Shown here in pieces: positions 17,989 through 29,534 of a stretch of 38,020 nt of DNA. The stretch covers positions 1-38,020 of the forward strand of contig JBDRDZ010000037.1 of NCBI GenBank assembly GCA_043820165.1, in the 5' to 3' direction. Below the pieces are notes generated by a model. The model was not told the DNA's origin, ran no database searches, and saw nothing but the letters and a program-made list of their open reading frames with translations. This DNA comes from Patescibacteria group bacterium (GTDB lineage: Bacteria > Patescibacteriota > Patescibacteriia > UBA9934). Numbering within the stretch: the stretch's first letter is position 1; every line of letters starts with the position of its first letter. Both the position numbers and the translations under genes were made by a program.

Positions 17989-19956
17989 CTACGGACCAAA
18001 GCGCCAGCTTCTCTGCTTGGACTTGCAGTGCTCCGGTTGTCTATCAGCCGGCTGCTCCAGACAGCTGTACACCTTGTATTTGGCCGAGATGCTCGTGATG
18101 GTGCCATAGCCACCGCCAGCACAGGCGAAGATGAACAGCAGGGCGACGGTTGCCCAAGTGACCCAGCTGATGGTCCGCAAGATCGCCTTGATCTTGAACT
18201 CTTCGGAAATCCGCCAGGCCCAGTGACGCATCATCTCCGCCAGGAGGCCAACGAGACCACCGATAACCACAGCTGCCATGGAACCAGCGATCCCCATATT
18301 GAAGTAGTAGACGCAGGTGACCAGGATAGTCACGACGAAGCTGATGATCGTCCAGGTGGTGCCCAACATGGCCATACCTTCGACTCGTTTTGGCGTCACG
18401 GCTGGTGTGGTCGATGACGACGAAGGTGCGGTCGCCACTTCCGGAGTACCAGGCAGCAGTTCGCGCATACCCTTGATGACCTTGATGGCCAGTTCGGCCA
18501 CCATTTTGGCCTTCTCCATCTGGAGAACTGAAGCGATGAAGCGCAGTCCTCCTAGTATGGTGTTGTGCATCATGTCGAGCAGGGCGATCGAAAAGCGACT
18601 GATTAGCGTCGCGACCAAGCCAGCCAGGTGGATGATCCAAACGCCGAGCATGAGAGCGGCCCAGAGGCTGAAGTAGAGCTGGCCGTTGTAGACGTACCAG
18701 AACTGGCCAGTGATGCCGAACATCTGCTGTACCGGGTAGTTGACGAACAGCAGGATCAGAGTCGTCCCGGTCAACACCAGATAGCCACCGACGGCCAGCA
18801 CTAGCGAAACCACGAAGATGCTGACCCAGCTGATGATCACCGCTTTGGCAATATTCTTGACCCAGCCCCAAATGCTCGAAGCAAATTCTGGACCCATGGT
18901 CTTGACCTTACTGAGCAGGTCGGCCTTGTAGACCTTCCACTCAACTCGATCAACACTGGTGAACTTATCGTCGAAGGTGTCGAGCACCCCTTTGATGTGG
19001 AACCAGGCGCTGTCCTGCAGCGCTTCATCGTCGCGTCCGACGTGGCGGATCACGGCCAGAAACGGCCGGTATCGCTGCAGCGTCGTGTGGATAAGATCGA
19101 GCTCAACTACGGGCAAGGGCAGATTCTTGCGGTCCGCCTCAGCTACCTGCAGAATGGCTTCGAGCGCGTCGTTGTACTCATCTGGCGTCAGTTCGGGCAG
19201 GAACTCGACGACGTGTGGCTCGGCCAGTAGACCGGCGTGGTGAGCGTCCATGAGCGTGTTGGCTCGTGTTGGCTCGTTGATGATGTCACGAACTCGCAGG
19301 TCAAAGATGCCTTCGAGCACGGCCAGCGACTTGCGCTGTTCCGGAGTGATGACTCCGATCAGGGTCGGCGAGCTATGTGCTTCCGGCTCGGTCTTGATGA
19401 TACCAGCAGCGAATTCTGGTCCGAAGCAAATCGGGCAGATCGGTCGGTGCGGGTAGGTCTTGAACATGGTGTAGATGCTGCCGGTGAAGGCATTGTGCAC
19501 CTTGGCACCAGCACAACCATCCGTCTTGTGGATCGGATCGTACTCGTGATCACCGGTACAAGCCTTGCCAGGCTCGGTGATTTCTTGGTGAACCGGACTG
19601 CCGTCCTTGACTGATTCGAAAAGCTTGTCCTTGAGCTCCTTGCTCGTGAGGTCCTGACGCTTGAGCATGCGCTCAATGCCAGGAGCAATGGCTTTGATGC
19701 CGCCAGTCAGCGGTACTCTAATCAGTCCCGGGATAGCTGGCGTGGCCTTAATGGTCTCGCCAATTGTGGTCAAACCCACCGAGCGGATACTCGGATCCAT
19801 GGCGATCACCGCTTCGGCAATCCACCAGATCACCCCGCCCATCTTTTTGAGCTTGTTGACATCGGTATCGGCAATAGCTGTCTCGACCTTTTCCTGAATT
19901 TCGTGCTCGGCGACACCGCCGAAGATGCTGCCGAAGTTTGGGTTTCCATGGGCCAT
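17989..19956 (-). CDS. Hypothetical 655-aa polytopic membrane protein with Cys/His-motif N-terminal domain (GC-rich island)
   Basis: Long ORF with AAGGAGG 5 nt upstream of the ATG and strong G/C-ending codon bias. About 340-aa soluble N-terminal part containing GKACTGDHEYDPIHKTDGCAGAKVH and HRPICPICFG. Then about 6-7 hydrophobic helices, and a Ser/Thr/Pro linker (TPEVATAPSSSSTTPAVTP). No family recognised. Confidence 0.75.
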   Translation of the reverse strand: MAHGNPNFGSIFGGVAEHEIQEKVETAIADTDVNKLKKMGGVIWWIAEAVIAMDPSIRSVGLTTIGETIKATPAIPGLIRVPLTGGIKAIAPGIERMLKRQDLTSKELKDKLFESVKDGSPVHQEITEPGKACTGDHEYDPIHKTDGCAGAKVHNAFTGSIYTMFKTYPHRPICPICFGPEFAAGIIKTEPEAHSSPTLIGVITPEQRKSLAVLEGIFDLRVRDIINEPTRANTLMDAHHAGLLAEPHVVEFLPELTPDEYNDALEAILQVAEADRKNLPLPVVELDLIHTTLQRYRPFLAVIRHVGRDDEALQDSAWFHIKGVLDTFDDKFTSVDRVEWKVYKADLLSKVKTMGPEFASSIWGWVKNIAKAVIISWVSIFVVSLVLAVGGYLVLTGTTLILLFVNYPVQQMFGITGQFWYVYNGQLYFSLWAALMLGVWIIHLAGLVATLISRFSIALLDMMHNTILGGLRFIASVLQMEKAKMVAELAIKVIKGMRELLPGTPEVATAPSSSSTTPAVTPKRVEGMAMLGTTWTIISFVVTILVTCVYYFNMGIAGSMAAVVIGGLVGLLAEMMRHWAWRISEEFKIKAILRTISWVTWATVALLFIFACAGGGYGTITSISAKYKVYSCLEQPADRQPEHCKSKQRSWRFGP

Positions 19957-20108
19957 GAGGCCTCCTTGTTTTCGAAAAGGGGTTTGGAATTGTGTAGGGG
20001 TTGTGTACGAGCGACAGCGGCCGCACCGTACGGTAGATGAAATGAACGCAAAAATTATGTTATTCAGGACCGACTACACAAAAGAAATTAGCCCTGAATT
20101 AACAGTCA

Positions 20109-20137
20109 ATATTATCATTATTTTAGCTAATTGTCAA
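20109..20137 (-). promoter_or_regulatory. Sigma70-like promoter for the 655-aa gene
   Basis: Minus strand reads TTGACA (20132..20137), 17 nt, TAATAT (20109..20114). Implies a 5' UTR of about 145 nt. Confidence 0.5.
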
Positions 20138-20261
20138 TGAAAAGTACTTACAGCGCAAAGGTGCGGGTTTTTTACTTTTCTTTAGGTTTTTCCAAAGAAA
20201 AGTAGATACTGGCCGCTTTATGCTGCAAAAAGATAATCACGCCTAAAATAGGCGTATTTGC

Positions 20262-20290
20262 TTGACAAAAGGCCATTTTTGTGCTATATT
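20262..20290 (+). promoter_or_regulatory. Sigma70-like promoter for the 259-aa secreted-protein gene
   Basis: TTGACA (20262..20267), 17 nt, TATATT (20285..20290). Shares TTGACAAA...GCTATATT with the tRNA-Leu promoter at 37885. Confidence 0.55.
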
Positions 20291-20390
20291 ATACAGTCAG
20301 TTTTGACCGTGGAAACCTGCTTTCAAAGGCGGGAATTCATGCGTTCTTCACATGAAATAGCGATCCATGAGTCGCTTTGCAGGAGATGCC

Positions 20391-21170
20391 ATGCATTGGT
20401 TTCTTTCTTGGTTCGCCATCCTCGTCGCCACCCCGGCTCTGGCTCAGAACCAGCCTAGCCACAAGAAGGACAGGATCGTCTGCGCCAACGTGCCGCCAGT
20501 TGTCATCACCCCGCGGGGCGGTGGCTTCCTCGGCATTCCCTACATCATGATCGGCAAGAAGGCCTGTCGCGAGGCCGAGGCTGATGTCATTCCCAGCGAG
20601 TCGGCGCCGTCATCTCTGCCCCAGGTGGCCGGGATCGACACCAACAAGCTGAGCTACAACGCCCTCGACCGTGCCCTCGGTCGTGAGCCGCGTGACCGCG
20701 CTGGTCAGATCGATCCGAGCGTCTGCTTCGAGGACGCACCGCCGGTCGGCTGGGAAGCGATTCCTGGTCCGCAGCGCCTGGTCGTGCAAAACAACACCGA
20801 CTCGGCGCTCGAGATTAAGGTTTTCACCCATCGCGGTGAGACCAAAGTCGAGACCGCGGTTGGCTTCGTCGGCTTCCCCGAGTTTGAAGGCTACCATTTG
20901 CCGACGCTCGTCGAAGGTCACGGTAGTGTGTTGCCGCCGCACACCACCTGCTACACCAGGCTGCCGACCAATCGCTCTGGCGTCTGGTCAGTGCAGGCCG
21001 AGCAGCTCGTGCACAGCGGTGACTTCGGCGAGTGGGTTCAGGACGGCGAGTCCTTCACCTATTCCGTGCCGCTCGTCGCCGATGGTTCGCAAAAGACCTA
21101 CGGCGTTCGCGATCGCGGCCAGCGTCAGTCGCTGATCGTCTTTCGCGCCAGCGTCTTCCGTACCCCTTGA
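20391..21170 (+). CDS. Hypothetical secreted protein (GC-rich island)
   Basis: Preferred start is M9 of the listed ORF (ATG 20391), preceded by AGGAG. Signal peptide MHWFLSWFAILVATPALAQ. GC-rich codon usage. No family recognised. Confidence 0.7.
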   Translation: MHWFLSWFAILVATPALAQNQPSHKKDRIVCANVPPVVITPRGGGFLGIPYIMIGKKACREAEADVIPSESAPSSLPQVAGIDTNKLSYNALDRALGREPRDRAGQIDPSVCFEDAPPVGWEAIPGPQRLVVQNNTDSALEIKVFTHRGETKVETAVGFVGFPEFEGYHLPTLVEGHGSVLPPHTTCYTRLPTNRSGVWSVQAEQLVHSGDFGEWVQDGESFTYSVPLVADGSQKTYGVRDRGQRQSLIVFRASVFRTP

Positions 21171-21185
21171 GCGCCTCGCGCTCTG

Positions 21186-21208
21186 CCCCCGTTGCCTAGC
21201 AGCGGGGG
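21186..21208 (+). terminator. GC-rich hairpin after the secreted-protein gene
   Basis: cccccgttgc-cta-gcagcggggg 10-bp stem. Only a weak T-tract follows (attgtgtttg). Confidence 0.5.
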
Positions 21209-26667: not shown

Positions 26668-27393
26668 ATGCAAAACTTAATAAAACGCTATCTTTTTGGC
26701 GCCGGGATTCTTTCCCTTTTTGTACTTTTGGGAGCTGGATGTTTTGGTGGGGAGGAGCCTTCACTTTCACTTTCAAAAACTACATTTGAACCAGGTGAGG
26801 AAATTGTTGTTAACTTTGTAGCTCTCGAGAGCTATGACTCGTCAGCTTGGGTTGGCATCGTTCCTGCTGATGTCGAGCATGGTGATGAAACCGTGAACGA
26901 TCAGTATGACATCGATTACGATTACATTGATGGCGCAACTTCAGGATCAATGACCTTCGAGGCCCCAAACCAGCCAGGTGATTATGATCTACGTATGCAT
27001 GACAATGACGTCGATGGCACTGAGGTAACCTATGTTTCTTTCACGGTAACTGCACCTGAAGTTGAAATCGAGCCAAGTCTGACTCTTGAAGAAACCGTTT
27101 ACGCTCCAGGCGACACTGTTACTGTAACTTTCACCGCACCTATTTCTTACGACACCACCGCTTGGGTCGGTATTGTGCCATCAGACACAGAACATGGCGA
27201 CGAAACTGTTAATGATGAGGCTGATCTTGGCTTCCAGTACCTGAGTAAGCAAACTGAAGGTACATTGACTTTCACCGCACCTGAGGATGTTGGTTTATAC
27301 GATTTACGCATGAATGATAGTGATACTGATGGAACCGAAGTCGCCTCAGTCACTTTTACAGTTGAAGTAGCAGAAGAAGAGGTTGAGGCGTAA
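26668..27393 (+). CDS. Lipoprotein made of two tandem 100-aa repeats of an unrecognised acidic domain
   Basis: Lipobox LLGAGC. Repeat 1 starts at nt 26758 (PSLSLSKTTFEPGEE...) and repeat 2 at nt 27073 (PSLTLEETVYAPGDT...). Shared core: SYD(S/T)(S/T)AWVGIVP.D.EHGDETVND...G(S/T).TF.AP...G.YDLRM.D.D.DGTEV..V.FTV. Confidence 0.75.
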   Translation: MQNLIKRYLFGAGILSLFVLLGAGCFGGEEPSLSLSKTTFEPGEEIVVNFVALESYDSSAWVGIVPADVEHGDETVNDQYDIDYDYIDGATSGSMTFEAPNQPGDYDLRMHDNDVDGTEVTYVSFTVTAPEVEIEPSLTLEETVYAPGDTVTVTFTAPISYDTTAWVGIVPSDTEHGDETVNDEADLGFQYLSKQTEGTLTFTAPEDVGLYDLRMNDSDTDGTEVASVTFTVEVAEEEVEA

Positions 27394-27463
27394 CGAGAAA
27401 TGAACTGCTTCATTTCGAGACGCCGAAACGGGCGAACCGATGTTCCTGTAGGGAACCGGCGAG
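27387..27463 (+). ncRNA. Structured RNA-like element, copy A (unclassified)
   Basis: Outer helix GGCGT (27387..27391) / ACGCC (27420..27424). Inner hairpin GAAATGAA-CTGC-TTCATTTC (27397..27416). Then a 36-nt block 27428..27463 that is 32/36 identical to 28783..28818 and contains hairpin GTTCC-loop-GGAAC. Strand and function are uncertain. Confidence 0.3.
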
Positions 27464-27490
27464 GGCAATCAGAAATCTAGAAACAAAAAA

Positions 27491-27516
27491 AGACTCGCTC
27501 CGGCGGGTCTTTTTTC
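27491..27516. terminator. Bidirectional intrinsic terminator downstream of element A
   Basis: aaaaaaa-agactcgc-tccg-gcgggtct-tttttt. Confidence 0.7.
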
Positions 27517-27768
27517 ATGGCGGTGTATTCGGGTCGTGATTTTATCAAAAAGGGCTTTTGAATTTATTAACTTTCTTGTCTATTATATCTACCGATTTAG
27601 AAAAGCCAATATTTCTTAACCGAAAAAATATAATTTGTGTAACATCCAAAATATTGTTAATTTGGCAGCAGAAATTTGTTTAATTTTTTAAAATTTTTTG
27701 GCAATTTATTTTAGATCGAGCGTAATTTATGTAAAATATAAACAGTTTGATAATTTAACCATGACAAT

Positions 27769-28017
27769 ATGGAAAAACAAGAAGGTGCTTTTAACCCACA
27801 AGAACACACACGTTGGGCAAAACAGCGGGCGCTTGAAATATTAAAACAAGGGGATCTCATGCAAGCAATCGATTCAATGGTAAGTGATTTACGTAAAGAT
27901 CCTACACGTCCGCCTGAACAGGTGAGAATGCTTACTATGATGGGCATGATTACAAGAAATGATCCTGCCTTAGATGAAAAGAAGGTAAGAGAGTTTATTG
28001 AAGGATTTGCAGAATAA
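27769..28017 (+). CDS. Hypothetical small helical protein (82 aa)
   Basis: Charged, helix-like composition. Followed by a clean terminator at 28065..28088, which favours this strand over the antisense 131-aa ORF. No SD seen and no family recognised. Confidence 0.45.
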   Translation: MEKQEGAFNPQEHTRWAKQRALEILKQGDLMQAIDSMVSDLRKDPTRPPEQVRMLTMMGMITRNDPALDEKKVREFIEGFAE

Positions 28018-28064
28018 ATTGCCAAAATTAATACAAGAGGTATATTGTTGACTACATCGAACAT

Positions 28065-28088
28065 AAAATCGCCCCTGAGGCGATTTTT
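28065..28088 (+). terminator. Intrinsic terminator after the 82-aa ORF
   Basis: aaaatcgcc-cctga-ggcgatttt(t). Confidence 0.75.
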
Positions 28089-28100
28089 GATTACTAGATA

Positions 28101-28665
28101 AACCACCAGCTTTAGCTGGTGAGTGCGTTTAAAGGCGAAGCCCTTGGGTTATAATAAAATCACCACACACGGAAAGGGGGTGATTTTATTATGTCCAATC
28201 GTAGGCTGTACTCATTAAATCATAGCACCTACGACTGTCAGTACCATATCGTCTGGATAACCAAGTGGCGAGGAAAGGTACTTACAGATAAGTATATCAA
28301 ATCTGAGCTAAAATCAATGTTTCGTCGTATTGCAGACTGGAAAGGCCTGACAATTTTGTCATGGCATGTCGGAGACGAACATGTACACATCATTCTCACG
28401 ATCCCGCCCAAGTATTCTGTTGCCTATGTCATCCAAGTCCTCAAAGGAAAGACATCCTCATGGATTAAGAAAAAGACTAAGAAACTTCCGAAGGGAAGTT
28501 TGTGGGTGCGAGGATATTTTGTCTCAACGATCGGTCTTGATGAAGCGATGGTTAGAAACTACGTTGACACACAACACGTCAACCATCAAGAAATGCCAAA
28601 ACTACCAATTTAACAGTCAGCAAGGCTGACAAACCGAAACCACCGGCGTTTAAGCCGGTGGTTGT
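28101..28665 (+). mobile_element. IS200-type (IS200/IS605 family, tnpA-only) insertion sequence. Boundaries approximate.
   Basis: Y1 HUH transposase gene flanked by related subterminal hairpins: CACCAGC-ttta-GCTGGTG (28104..28121) and AACCACCGGC-gtttaa-GCCGGTGGTT (28638..28663). Internal TATAAT at 28150..28155. No tnpB. Confidence 0.7.
28191..28613 (+). CDS. tnpA: IS200/IS605-family Y1 (HUH) transposase TnpA
   Basis: 140 aa. YHIVWITKWRGKVL. HUH motif in DEHVHIILTIPPKYSVAYVIQVLKGKTS. Catalytic-Tyr region LWVRGYFVSTIGLDEAMVRNYV. Confidence 0.9.
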   Translation: MSNRRLYSLNHSTYDCQYHIVWITKWRGKVLTDKYIKSELKSMFRRIADWKGLTILSWHVGDEHVHIILTIPPKYSVAYVIQVLKGKTSSWIKKKTKKLPKGSLWVRGYFVSTIGLDEAMVRNYVDTQHVNHQEMPKLPI

Positions 28666-28736
28666 TCATTTTTGACTCGCCCCTATCTTTTATAGCCAAA
28701 TGGGTTAACGATAAAAAATAGTCCTGGCGGAGAGGG

Positions 28737-28860
28737 GTTGCAGCGTAGTGAGCAGTAAACTGCTTTACTGTGAACCGCTGCAACGGGCGAACCGATGTTC
28801 CTAAAAGGAACCGGTGAGCCCCGGACCTCCCGATCGCCCGAACCTACGAGGGTTCTCATC
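28737..28860 (+). ncRNA. Structured RNA-like element, copy B (longer, unclassified)
   Basis: Perfect 9-bp outer helix GTTGCAGCG (28737..28745) / CGCTGCAAC (28776..28784). Inner hairpin CAGTAAA-CTGC-TTTACTG (28753..28770). Conserved 36-nt block 28783..28818. Possible GGGCGA (28785..28790) / TCGCCC (28834..28839) helix. Hairpin GAACC-tacgag-GGTTC (28840..28855). Not matched to any family I know. Confidence 0.3.
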
Positions 28861-28909
28861 ACCTCCTCAATAATGAAAAACAGCCAGTCTAACGACTGAC
28901 TATTTTTCA

Positions 28910-28999
28910 TGGCGGAGAGGGAGGGATTCGAACCCTCGAGACCCTTTCAGGTCTACAGCTTTTCGAGAGCTGCGCTTTCGACCACTCAGCCACCTCTCC
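28910..28999 (-). tRNA. tRNA-Ser (anticodon CGA), long variable arm, CCA encoded
   Basis: Reverse complement is GGAGAGGTGGCTGAGTGGTCGAAAGCGCAGCTCTCGAAAAGCTGTAGACCTGAAAGGGTCTCGAGGGTTCGAATCCCTCCCTCTCCGCCA. Anticodon stem CAGCT/AGCTG with loop CTCGAAA. T-arm GAGGG-TTCGAAT-CCCTC. Confidence 0.93.
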
Positions 29000-29026
29000 A
29001 AATATTATTGTTCTCCGAGGGTAGCA

Positions 29027-29058
29027 TAAAAAAACGATCGCGTCCACGGGGGCGCGAT
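29027..29058 (-). terminator. Intrinsic terminator after the AlaE-like gene
   Basis: 9-bp stem atcgcgtcc-acgg-gggcgcgat. On the minus strand it is followed by cgttttttt. Confidence 0.7.
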
Positions 29059-29534
29059 TAGACTTTGAACTTGGTTTTGAGTCGTTCGATGACACATTTG
29101 AGCCCATCGAGCACGAGCCCAAAAAAGGGGCCGACAAAAAAAGTCGTGACAGCGACAAAAGCGATAGCGTTCAAGCTGCTAACGATCCTTAATTCTGTGC
29201 CGAGAAAAGAACGAATGACTACCTGAACCACGATCGCTATCGTATAAAGAATTACATGGTAAAGACAGTAGCAGGGCGCGTCGATGATGACACGCTGTAG
29301 GCGATCAGTTGTCGTCAGTTTGCTGAGTTCCGTCTTTGAGACCTCGAGAAACCAGTCGCGGAAGCGATCATACTGACCGCCAAACGAGACCTTCGCGGTG
29401 ATGAACCAAATGCGGTTGGCGAGAAACTCACTTGGAGTCATTTCAGCAATATAGATGTCCACCGGCAAAGACGATAACGCTCCGATGAACATAGCTACAT
29501 AGCCGGCTGGGTTGGAGCGTAATCTTGCGAACAA
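29058..29534 (-). CDS. Small membrane protein, possibly AlaE-family L-alanine exporter
   Basis: 158 aa, TTG start. Overall layout and motifs (MFARLRS..., YDRFRDWF, C-terminal FFGLVLDGLK) resemble E. coli AlaE (MFSPQSRLRH..., YGMYRDLF, YGYFLDYCRR) as remembered. GC moderately elevated (hand count 31/60 at 29101..29160). Confidence 0.45.
   Translation of the reverse strand: MFARLRSNPAGYVAMFIGALSSLPVDIYIAEMTPSEFLANRIWFITAKVSFGGQYDRFRDWFLEVSKTELSKLTTTDRLQRVIIDAPCYCLYHVILYTIAIVVQVVIRSFLGTELRIVSSLNAIAFVAVTTFFVGPFFGLVLDGLKCVIERLKTKFKV

Follow-up and report, generated by a model that had tools for sequence, protein, structure and literature searches.

Two similar hairpin modules lie downstream of a tRNA-Ser gene

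The 38,020-nt contig JBDRDZ010000037.1 (assembly GCA_043820165.1), from a Patescibacteria group bacterium of the candidate phyla radiation (CPR), was analysed over its whole length, referred to here as the window. The tRNA and Rfam scans identified an intact tRNA-Ser(CGA) gene with encoded CCA on the minus strand (28910–28999), which is the proposed attachment site considered below, and two similar 89-base hairpin modules were found downstream of it. Read on the plus strand, the order is ORF241, unit A, a core, unit B and a second core shared with the tRNA gene. ORF241, taken from the ORF list (26668–27393, plus strand), encodes a secreted repeat protein whose last five or so codons (E V E A stop) run into the left edge of repeat A. 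Nearly all of its 92 homologues stop 1–3 residues past ..TFTV, whereas ORF241 itself has an 8-residue acidic tail.

A repeat search of the window revealed a direct repeat of 86 nt (27378–27463 and 28733–28818; 77% identity, 1,355 nt apart), and the alignment of its copies was ungapped across 89 columns (27378–27466 and 28733–28821). These two conserved blocks, both on the plus strand and defined by the repeat search, the alignment and folds, were designated repeat A and repeat B. An earlier note on this DNA had described two direct-repeat elements of shared architecture, and all of its sequence claims about them were borne out. Repeat A comprises a long hairpin (27382–27429), made up of an outer helix (27382–27390/27421–27429) and an inner hairpin (27397–27404/27409–27416) with the loop CTGC (27405–27408), and a second hairpin formed by a 36-mer (27430–27466), the basal stem of which is broken. 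In repeat B, where all pairs are intact, the corresponding elements are the long hairpin (28737–28784), its outer helix (28737–28745/28776–28784), the inner hairpin (28752–28759/28764–28771) with the loop CTGC (28760–28763), and the 36-mer hairpin (28785–28821). The 36-mer ACGGGCGAACCGATGTTCCTNNNNGGAACCGGNGAG occurs exactly twice in the window (27428–27463 and 28783–28818), with none expected from 100 shuffles, and a pattern search of the window verified that its two versions agree at 32 of 36 positions, as had been stated.

Each block is followed by a terminator-like palindrome and then by the 13-mer TTTTTCATGGCGG, in agreement with the earlier description. The palindrome after repeat A (27486–27515; inverted-repeat search and fold) is terminator-like in both directions, and the first 13-mer (27511–27523, plus strand) forms the left junction of a 1.2-kb insert described below. 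The last 6 nt of this copy (27518–27523, TGGCGG) are the complement of the tRNA end CCGCCA with no tRNA attached, and blastn detected no decayed tRNA to its right. After repeat B, a B-specific spacer (28822–28872) leads to a bidirectional terminator directly downstream of tRNA-Ser (28873–28910; 17-bp stem, loop TAAC on the plus and GTTA on the minus strand). The second 13-mer (28903–28915, plus strand) overlaps the real tRNA 3′ end and, because the gene lies on the minus strand, contains the complement of CCGCCA, as the earlier note had it. The spacer includes an inverted partial copy of the tRNA-Ser T-arm/acceptor region (28847–28868, 17/22) and the motif CCTCCCG, which in predicted folds pairs with a displaced copy of the tRNA end (see below).

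Identity between A and B is uneven, at 100% in the 13-mer, 89% in the 36-mer and about 70% in the long hairpin, where pairing is kept. The spacers and terminators of A and B showed no similarity reported as a repeat, a weak and non-significant blastn match being all that was obtained. The hexamer GAACCG is present 12 times in the whole 38 kb, and 5 of these copies fall in the 89-nt blocks A and B; it may be an arm-type repeat, which is a lead only.

The long hairpin has been maintained through compensatory changes

The outer helices reported previously do pair in both copies, but they should be redrawn as one homologous helix of nine pairs (GTTG....CAAC), which in copy A holds a tandem G.A/A.G mismatch. 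The observation that the inner stems differ and still pair around a common CTGC loop was upheld. Copy B has a longer hairpin of 14 pairs (28785–28821) with the 36-mer as its core; the basal stem of this hairpin is GGGC/GCCC in B and is destroyed in A (GGGC/GGGC). Across the 31 aligned pairs, four double-sided changes keep pairing (three in the inner 8-bp hairpin, one in the outer helix) and two one-sided changes both give G-U. Five cells are unpaired and all five belong to copy A, suggesting that A is a decaying copy. Sliding the 3′ partners by 1–3 columns lowered pairing from 92% to 28–44%, and the four compensatory changes compare with an estimated 0.6 or so under random placement of the 11 stem substitutions. 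The pairing statistic computed from the two sequences alone was reached by 20 of 500 shuffles. These data support the view that A and B are true paralogues and that the long hairpin has been maintained through compensatory changes, a pattern that is hard to obtain by neutral decay of a recent duplicate.

Such a pattern would be expected of a genuine structured RNA, the reading favoured in the earlier note. Each copy would then be transcribed on the plus strand and end at the next intrinsic terminator, with A as a 3′-UTR element of ORF241 and B as a separate RNA of about 200 nt, and the RNA would act through the 36-mer hairpin or through the 12-nt complement of the tRNA-Ser 3′ end that precedes B. 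Besides the four compensatory pairs, this reading is favoured by the one-sided changes being G-U on the plus strand only, by the terminator with a good U-run that follows both copies on that strand (on the minus strand the terminators sit upstream and would insulate the units), and by the folding of the B region, which is far better than that of shuffles (z = −5.0 to −7.3). The repeat also has no codon-position bias in any frame and is thus non-coding. However, the z-scores are similar on both strands and largely due to the terminator palindromes, the chance expectation for the two G-U observations is 25%, and a template-switch mutation can preserve the complementarity of a palindrome without selection. 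Furthermore, no sigma-70-like promoter was predicted directly upstream of B, and the broken pairs of A include the entire basal stem of the 36-mer hairpin. Paralogy and compensatory change stand, but with the apparent decay of A and the search results below, a structured RNA appears unlikely; it would in any case be compatible with an origin as mobile DNA.

Searches for further copies, RNA families and recombinases

At the gathering threshold, Rfam returned only the three tRNAs of the window and no family for A or B, and a permissive scan of 27300–29050 gave over A and B only weak sub-threshold matches (STnc100, 24.5 bits with a threshold of 47; istR, 21.7 bits with a threshold of 45). The earlier note's failure to place the motif in a known RNA family is consistent with this result. 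Exact-pattern scans for further copies of the 36-mer found none in 185,579 species-representative genomes, JGI metagenomes and IMG/VR, and a covariance model detected no further copy in 22 related or viral loci, 13 of them from relatives. For the structured-RNA reading this leaves two copies, both from a single locus on a single contig. When the 36-mer core and the predicted attP junctions, that of a B-type unit being GCTGCAAC-CCCTCTCCGCCA-TGAAAAATAG, were scanned for, the matches were only chance, coding or plain tRNA ones. In the collections scanned, no autonomous element carrying the 36-mer or the predicted junction was found, nor any related one that shares the att specificity, such as would mark a cis-mobilizable element. 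A Pfam search of 30 ORFs identified no integrase or recombinase in the 38-kb contig beside the IS200 Y1 transposase (TnpA).

Several known kinds of element were compared with the modules. The end hairpins of IS200 have no similarity to A or B, which speaks against IS200/IS605 ends or miniature elements derived from them. An integron attC site was dismissed because GTTG...CAAC has the reversed order on either strand and an integrase gene is absent. Neither ARAGORN nor Rfam RF00005 called a tRNA or tRNA pseudogene over A or B, and blastn with tRNA-Ser gave only a 12-nt copy and a 20-nt inverted T-arm piece. A genome-wide dispersed repeat family, REP/BIME-like or MITE-like and located near the tRNA by accident, would likewise consist of hairpin-rich, intergenic elements near gene 3′ ends. 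Such a family is nevertheless highly improbable, given only two copies in 38 kb, in the same orientation and both downstream of one tRNA, the lack of a copy in the 13 loci of relatives (covariance model) and of an exact-core match in any collection scanned, and the dissimilarity to the IS200 end hairpins.

Copies of the tRNA end bound the units, and a 1,201-bp segment lies exactly within the middle core

A displaced copy of the tRNA-Ser 3′ end, overlooked in the earlier note, is present on the plus strand at 28722–28736 (TCCTGGCGGAGAGGG, compared with TCATGGCGGAGAGGG at the gene). It directly precedes repeat B and is identical at 12/12 positions (28725–28736). The last 12 nt of the tRNA (TGGCGGAGAGGG) flank copy B on both sides (28725–28736 and 28910–28921), and these are the sole matches in the window, where 0.1 would be expected.

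Between the units lies a segment of 1,201 bp (27524–28724) with TGGCGG at both flanks. It contains an AT-rich tract, the 82-aa ORF82 (27769–28017, plus strand) and the IS200 tnpA gene (28191–28613, plus strand), together with the left-end (28102–28122) and right-end (28638–28663) hairpins of IS200, which resemble one another. ORF82 is bracketed by a perfect 15-nt inverted repeat (27696–27710/28013–28027), and its relatives, at 38–50% identity, are found on nine IMG/VR viral contigs. Deletion of 27524–28724 in silico restores a perfect tandem of two units (block, spacer, terminator and TTTTTCA TGGCGGAGAGGG), indicating that the segment was placed exactly in the middle core with duplication of TGGCGG. 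In this pre-insertion reconstruction the shared 13-mer extends to an identical 19-mer.

A tandem of this kind could also have arisen in situ, from a tRNA-Ser trailer that belongs to the host. In one slippage or microhomology event via the 5-nt AGAGG, present at 27378–27382 and inside the tRNA acceptor strand, the hairpins, terminator, TTTTTCA and TGGCGGAGAGGG would have been copied; the copies would then have diverged in place, with a later, unrelated mobile insertion between them, and the hairpins would be host features such as 3′-end or insulator structures between convergent genes. The clean two-unit tandem before insertion, with the junction GGAGAGGG|GTTG and AGAGG at both unit ends, agrees with this, as do the absence of a recombinase gene from the contig, the failure to find a copy elsewhere in the searched collections and loci, and the position of unit A, since one would expect host sequence past the last tRNA-end repeat that can be recognised. 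However, a single event followed by neutral drift does not predict divergence as uneven as 0% in the 13-mer, about 11% in the 36-mer and about 30% in the long hairpin, with terminators and spacers lacking detectable similarity. It also leaves unexplained the exact landing of the 1.2-kb segment on TGGCGG and the tRNA-end repeat around a different body in the relative L016 described below. We regard in-situ duplication as doubtful, with perhaps the same standing as a structured RNA.

A parallel arrangement in a distant relative

In L016, a locus from a distant relative whose neighbouring Wzy gene is 56% identical, the first feature downstream of tRNA-Ser(CGA) is a terminator that shares its GTTA loop with the one in JBDRDZ010000037.1. 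Next come, in this order, a hairpin-rich body of about 110 nt with an inverted T-arm fragment, CAAC, 15 nt that repeat the tRNA end of that genome exactly (7115 and 7271; 0 expected) and a second terminator. This insert of about 140 nt is different from the units of the present contig; its body cannot be aligned to A or B, so that any homology with them is putative. The tRNA-end repeat follows the acceptor-stem variant of each genome (CTCACC in L016, CTCTCC here). As a control, four other tRNAs in these loci were inspected, and none has a copy of its own 3′ end downstream.

Three contigs of relatives (L008, L012 and L017), from independent assemblies, break off at the 3′ end of this tRNA or no more than 5 nt from it. 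This fits population heterogeneity downstream of the tRNA, although contigs can also stop at conserved tRNA genes for trivial reasons of assembly. No empty site at tRNA-Ser(CGA) was seen among the relatives' loci examined. On two related phage contigs of IMG/VR, the 7-nt sequence TGAAAAA that comes after CCA here also stands behind a tRNA-Ser that is unrelated. It may simply be a common terminator A-tract, which weakens the 13-mer as an att core.

Discussion

The modules look more like the ends of small stacked DNA inserts than like a new RNA gene family. We give a probability of about 0.5 to a reading in which integrative inserts, miniature or decayed, are stacked at an att site in the tRNA gene and have A and B as their homologous end modules. 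An att-like duplication caused by integration at tRNA-Ser had been named as an alternative in the earlier note, and it fits the new evidence better than a structured RNA does, because copies of the tRNA 3′ end bound the units, a 1.2-kb segment of mobile DNA lies exactly inside one core, and the same architecture with a different body follows tRNA-Ser(CGA) in L016.

From these observations we infer a recombinase, an order of events and a role for the hairpins. A site-specific recombinase would cross over in the last bases of the tRNA gene (TGGCGG, plus strand); the incoming DNA would carry a terminator of its own and a tRNA end to replace the old one, which would be pushed outward as a direct repeat. 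Repeated events (tandem accretion) would produce the present order from ORF241 to the tRNA, in which inserts that are very small (about 150–190 bp) and carry no cargo are stacked at the tRNA-Ser(CGA) 3′ end. A third event would have brought the 1.2-kb mobile segment with its phage-related small ORF into the middle core, and IS200 may have hit this segment later or come with it. We likewise infer that unit A was inserted and is not simply the trailer that the host had from the start, since its distal (left) side carries no recognisable tRNA fragment beyond AGAG.

Under integration at the tRNA gene, the non-coding module of long hairpin and 36-mer hairpin would be located where the P arm of attP is expected. 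Covariation and the close match between the 36-mers would then be due to constraint on element ends during the divergence of A and B as mobile DNA or parts of it. The constraint could be imposed by binding of the recombinase or an accessory protein, or by a function as RNA or terminator that the element carries. The intact copy, B, would be the younger of the two, and A, which is decaying, the older. The mosaic conservation fits constraint at the level of the site, in relatives that have diverged, better than it fits a uniform neutral decay. To our knowledge, classical attP arms are not long perfect hairpins with covarying stems, which counts against this reading. A more specific and rather improbable version is that the units are undescribed, non-autonomous, cargo-less 'attP-only' mini-elements parasitising a tRNA-Ser(CGA)-specific recombinase in Uhrbacteria-like CPR, with A, B and the L016 insert as members. 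Each would supply a terminator and a tRNA end as replacements, and its arm would be recognised as a folded hairpin whose structure is conserved and whose sequence is free, as in integron attC sites.

At present the phenomenon is confined to two copies at a single locus, and nothing points to wider conservation. If the stacked-insert reading is right, a CPR lineage has a recombination hot spot at tRNA-Ser(CGA), and mobile elements with their att sites have been little charted in such lineages. It would also follow that apparent 'covarying RNA motifs' beside tRNA genes can be the ends of integrated DNA, which would call for caution in ncRNA discovery in metagenome-assembled genomes. Should the mini-element version hold, these units would be an integrase-dependent counterpart of MITEs.

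Among known systems, the Xanthomonas sRNA sX4 (Rfam RF02223) has a tRNA-Ser-like part and a trailer that pairs with the T-arm. Here, tRNA-Ser with 53 nt of trailer, including the inverted T-arm copy, matched it at a sub-threshold 37 bits (gathering threshold 70); however, the score comes mainly from the tRNA, and repeats A and B lie outside the match. Integron attC sites share covarying stems and short conserved motifs beside a recombination point, bracketing a small ORF, but the GTTG...CAAC found here is reversed relative to RYYYAAC...GTTRRRY (R″...R′) of attC, and the contig has no IntI gene or cassette array. In phage mv4 the attP site is 234 bp long, and its 17-bp core matches a tRNA-Ser gene exactly at the 3′ end of the latter (bioRxiv 10.1101/2023.11.06.565760). 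This attP is comparable to one unit in size, short core and use of the extreme 3′ end of tRNA-Ser. It differs in that its arms carry arm-type sites for a known integrase and no long covarying hairpins, and there is no sequence similarity.

Tandem islands with repeats of a t(m)RNA end, an adjoining conserved motif and integrase-less members are documented (PMC3146451; PMC5704250). Like the cis-mobilizable elements (CIMEs) of the Streptococcus ICESt1 family and the Dehalococcoides ssrA islands, the present units have att-core copies in tandem, carry no integration or transfer genes and show a conserved block right beside each repeat; unit B is placed between two 12-nt cores and the 1.2-kb segment between two copies of TGGCGG. 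Described CIMEs are, in contrast, kilobases long and derived from identifiable ICEs or IMEs, whereas these units are cargo-less, with no related autonomous element known and only putative mobility. The diagnostic signature of integration into a tRNA gene is a regenerated target together with a displaced fragment, the principle on which Islander is built (PMC4383910). Islander requires an integrase gene and kilobase-scale length, whereas the bounded units here measure about 150–190 bp without an integrase gene, and the identity block is short (12–15 nt; 6 nt at one junction). As in tRNA islands and prophage remnants, however, the tRNA-Ser is intact, its last 12–15 nt are copied shortly downstream in the direct orientation, foreign DNA (IS200 and the phage-related small ORF) lies inside the bounded region, and the signature recurs at the same tRNA in a relative.

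Genomic context of repeats A and B

The window, a complete contig of 38,020 nt, belongs to a Patescibacteria (CPR) metagenome-assembled genome (MAG). The contig starts with dnaA and dnaN, carries a T4SS-pilin gene cluster typical of CPR, and has its closest protein relatives in entries labelled Uhrbacteria or Patescibacteria. The paralogous repeats A (27378-27466) and B (28733-28821) are intergenic, flanked on one side by ORF241, which encodes a secreted repeat protein (26668-27393, + strand), and on the other by tRNA-Ser(CGA) (28910-28999, - strand). The last codons of ORF241 overlap repeat A, and its product ends in an eight-residue acidic tail, VAEEEVEA (window 27367-27393), past the usual homologue end; nearly all of 92 homologues stop at ..TFTV plus one to three residues, and a similar acidic tail was found in homologue P0016.

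The tRNA is adjoined by a gene for an AlaE-like 158-aa membrane protein (29058-29534, - strand; weak Pfam AlaE match, E = 9e-8). A word-indexed search of 5.8 billion proteins returned no homologue of this protein except itself, so the gene was unusable as a synteny anchor. Elsewhere on the contig, the stretch at about 18000-21200 has a GC content of 0.54-0.57, compared with about 0.44 elsewhere, and holds a 655-aa and a 267-aa ORF, neither with a Pfam match. In L006, a contig from a sister genome, the PGI gene and the pilin genes are separated by other genes than here, and this stretch may therefore have been acquired horizontally or belong to a variable part of the genome.

Repeats A and B share a paired structure

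The repeat search identified 27378-27463 and 28733-28818 as a direct repeat of 86 nt with 77% identity, and alignment of A and B by MAFFT gave 89 columns with no gaps. The sequence statements of the earlier note, which had proposed A and B as structured RNA elements, were all correct: the 36-mer occurs exactly twice in the window (none expected in shuffles), and a terminator-like palindrome precedes both occurrences of the 13-mer TTTTTCATGGCGG (27511 and 28903). Conservation between the two copies is mosaic, the 13-mer being perfect, the 36-mer 89% identical and the long hairpin about 70% identical with its pairing kept; no similarity between their spacers and terminators was detectable by repeat search or blastn.

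Thirty-one pairs were counted in the common structure. Four had changed on both sides with Watson-Crick pairing kept (three in the inner 8-bp hairpin and one in the outer helix), two had changed on one side to G-U, and all five unpaired cells were in copy A. When the 3' partners were slid by one to three columns, pairing fell from 92% to 28-44%. Of the 34 stem positions in the long hairpin, 11 are substituted, and its four compensatory pairs compare with about 0.6 by chance (our own estimate, from two sequences only), so the hairpin appears to have been maintained and not merely inherited; only 20 of 500 column shuffles reached the observed pairing values. In copy B, the 36-mer forms the core of a 14-pair hairpin, which the earlier note had missed, and the basal stem of this hairpin (GGGC/GCCC) is destroyed in A (GGGC/GGGC).

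These data bear on the proposal of structured RNA paralogues. Paralogy and a maintained hairpin structure were upheld, whereas a structured RNA family is a putative interpretation and a less probable one. A real + strand RNA, which could coexist with a mobile origin, is possible from the sequence: both G-U changes are valid on the + strand only, + strand terminators follow both copies, and the B region folds with z-scores of -5.0 to -7.3. However, copy A is damaged, conservation elsewhere was not found, and a predicted promoter directly upstream of B is absent.

The hexamer GAACCG occurs five times in the two 89-nt blocks (27434, 27453, 28772, 28789 and 28808), with a spacing of 16-19 nt, compared with only 12 occurrences on the + strand in all 38 kb of the window; a protein may bind at these repeated sites.

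Several other identities were rejected. In none of the six frames do the substitutions between A and B favour a codon position, and the codon changes are mostly non-synonymous, indicating that the repeats are not coding. A 75-aa minus-strand ORF (28683-28910) is almost certainly spurious; it begins at an ATG overlapping the CCA end of the tRNA and reads through the terminator and the whole of repeat B. No cloverleaf was detected in B, although a three-way junction with an acceptor-like stem was predicted in B only, and blastn showed no tRNA similarity past TGGCGG next to A, excluding a tRNA-like gene and a decayed tandem tRNA-Ser, respectively. The repeats bear no resemblance to the hairpins at the ends of the IS200 in the window. 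They are also not integron attC sites, as their outer helix has GTTG...CAAC, an order opposite to that of the attC end motifs, and an integron integrase is absent.

Copies of the tRNA end bound unit B and a 1.2-kb segment

Three further features had been missed by the earlier note. A copy of the tRNA 3' end directly precedes B: the window contains TGGCGGAGAGGG only twice (0.1 expected), at 28725-28736 and at 28910-28921, and with flanks included the copy matches at 14 of 15 positions. At 28847-28868, the T-arm and acceptor strand of the tRNA recur in inverted orientation, matching at 17 of 22 positions. A segment of 1,201 nt (27524-28724) lies between two TGGCGG copies. When this segment was taken out, a clean tandem remained, in which [hairpins - spacer - terminator - TTTTTCA TGGCGGAGAGGG] is present twice and abuts the tRNA, implying that the IS200/ORF82 segment entered exactly at the middle one of the tRNA-end cores. 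The att-like duplication from integration at tRNA-Ser that the earlier note had offered as an alternative fits these data better, in that tRNA-end copies bound unit B and the segment lies in the core.

The clean tandem could also be accounted for by an in-situ tandem duplication of the host trailer via AGAGG microhomology. Such a duplication, however, leaves unexplained why the two units diverged unevenly, why the 1.2-kb segment lies exactly where it does, and why the relative L016, described below, has a parallel arrangement.

The segment carries mobile-type genes, namely IS200 and ORF82 (82 aa; 27769-28017, + strand). ORF82 had no match in Pfam, PHROG or NCBIfam, and its only detected relatives, with 38-50% identity, are on nine IMG/VR viral contigs, mostly of high GC content; in the one contig inspected (L032), the relative lies among small unknown phage-type genes, near ParB-like and phosphohydrolase genes. 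ORF82 is bracketed by a perfect 15-nt inverted repeat, TTTTGGCAATTTATT / AATAAATTGCCAAAA (27696-27710 / 28013-28027), whose right arm overlaps the ORF82 stop codon; promoter-like hexamers are present at both arms. This repeat could represent the ends of a cassette of about 330 bp, or an operator/terminator pair.

Searches for further copies

Neither A nor B was assigned to an Rfam family at gathering or permissive thresholds, a check that the earlier note had called for. The 36-mer core was scanned as the exact pattern GCGAACCGATGTTCCNNNNNGGAAC (20 fixed bases, so that a relative with one change in these would be missed) in 185,579 species-representative genomes, JGI metagenomes and IMG/VR, collections that do not include the source MAG. 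The scan returned four genome matches and one metagenome match, and no viral match. The five matches, all regarded as chance, lie inside coding sequences that are unrelated and show no similarity in their flanks. The covariance model R1, made from A and B, found A and B only in the window and 21 other loci; two viral-contig matches to R1 (E = 0.19 and 0.55) were regarded as noise. Distant blastn searches of phage and plasmid collections gave no match to A or B. For unit B, the attP junction, as in a circular form, is predicted to be GCTGCAAC-CCCTCTCCGCCA-TGAAAAATAG. Scans of viral contigs for predicted attP junctions yielded coding or chance matches, or ordinary phage tRNA-Ser genes with TGAAAAA terminators. 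Of the source MAG, the searches read this contig only, and of its closest sister, GCA_043822465.1, only L006, which holds the closest ORF241 relative and stops inside it. Another ORF241 homologue (L007) is followed by a plain terminator, and the element is absent. Within the window and the examined loci, a dispersed repeat family is therefore unlikely.

A parallel arrangement at tRNA-Ser(CGA) in a relative

Syntenic loci were recovered with the neighbouring Wzy gene as the anchor. Contigs from three independent Logan assemblies (L008, L012 and L017) end no more than 5 nt from the tRNA-Ser(CGA) 3' end, and a fourth contig (L009) stops inside the tRNA, which suggests either that strains differ downstream of the tRNA or that assembly failed artificially at a conserved gene. 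Relatives with contigs that stop at this tRNA are from SRR28998480, SRR25010669 and SRR10996910. Only the scaffold L016 continues beyond the tRNA. There it has, in this order, a terminator whose GTTA loop is shared with the window; a hairpin-rich body of about 110 nt with an inverted T-arm strand copy (GAGGGAGGGAT); the tetranucleotide CAAC, which A and B have in the same place; its own tRNA end, repeated exactly over 15 nt (7115 and 7271; 0 expected); and a second terminator. The 15-nt repeat follows the acceptor-stem variant of its own genome. The L016 body could not be aligned with A or B. Four other tRNAs in these loci had no downstream copy of their 3' ends.

Two synteny arguments were dropped: the 194-aa gene by the tRNA in L016 has no BLASTP similarity to ORF241, and orthology between the terminators nearest the ORF in the window and in L016 was not upheld, as all pairwise terminator alignments were equally weak.

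In the window (28847-28999, - strand) and in L016 (7037-7225), tRNA-Ser(CGA) has a trailer with an inverted T-arm/acceptor copy, so that a transcript reading through into the trailer could fold back onto the 3' half of the tRNA. The Xanthomonas sRNA sX4 in Rfam has the same layout, a tRNA with a complementary trailer; its sub-threshold match here (37 bits compared with 70) is due to the inverted T-arm copy and otherwise rests on the tRNA itself.

Proposed inserts at a putative tRNA attachment site

Taken together, the tRNA-end copies, the 1.2-kb segment in the core, the mosaic conservation and the tandem and attP precedents lead us to read A and B as insert end modules. The most likely explanation, to which we give roughly even odds, is that insertion scars or mini-inserts are stacked at an attachment site in tRNA-Ser. 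A and B would then be homologous end modules, in the P-arm position, and would come from two miniature or decayed inserts that are related to each other and stacked at the att site, with B intact and A eroding; the compensatory changes would have arisen while A and B diverged as functional ends of elements. Against this reading, an integrase gene is absent from the contig, no autonomous relative was found in the searches, A has no recognisable distal tRNA fragment, and TGAAAAA after CCA is possibly just a common terminator start. In addition, classical attP arms, unlike A and B, are not known to be long covarying hairpins.

A regenerated tRNA gene with a displaced 3' fragment is a textbook mark of site-specific integration (PMC4383910). 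Tandem arrays with such bounding repeats have been documented, including integrase-less 'cis-mobilizable' members and a conserved repeat-adjacent motif (PMC5704250; PMC3146451). The 3' end of a tRNA-Ser gene is also where phage mv4 integrates, with an attP of 234 bp and a core of 17 bp (bioRxiv 10.1101/2023.11.06.565760), and each unit here is thus about the size of one attP.
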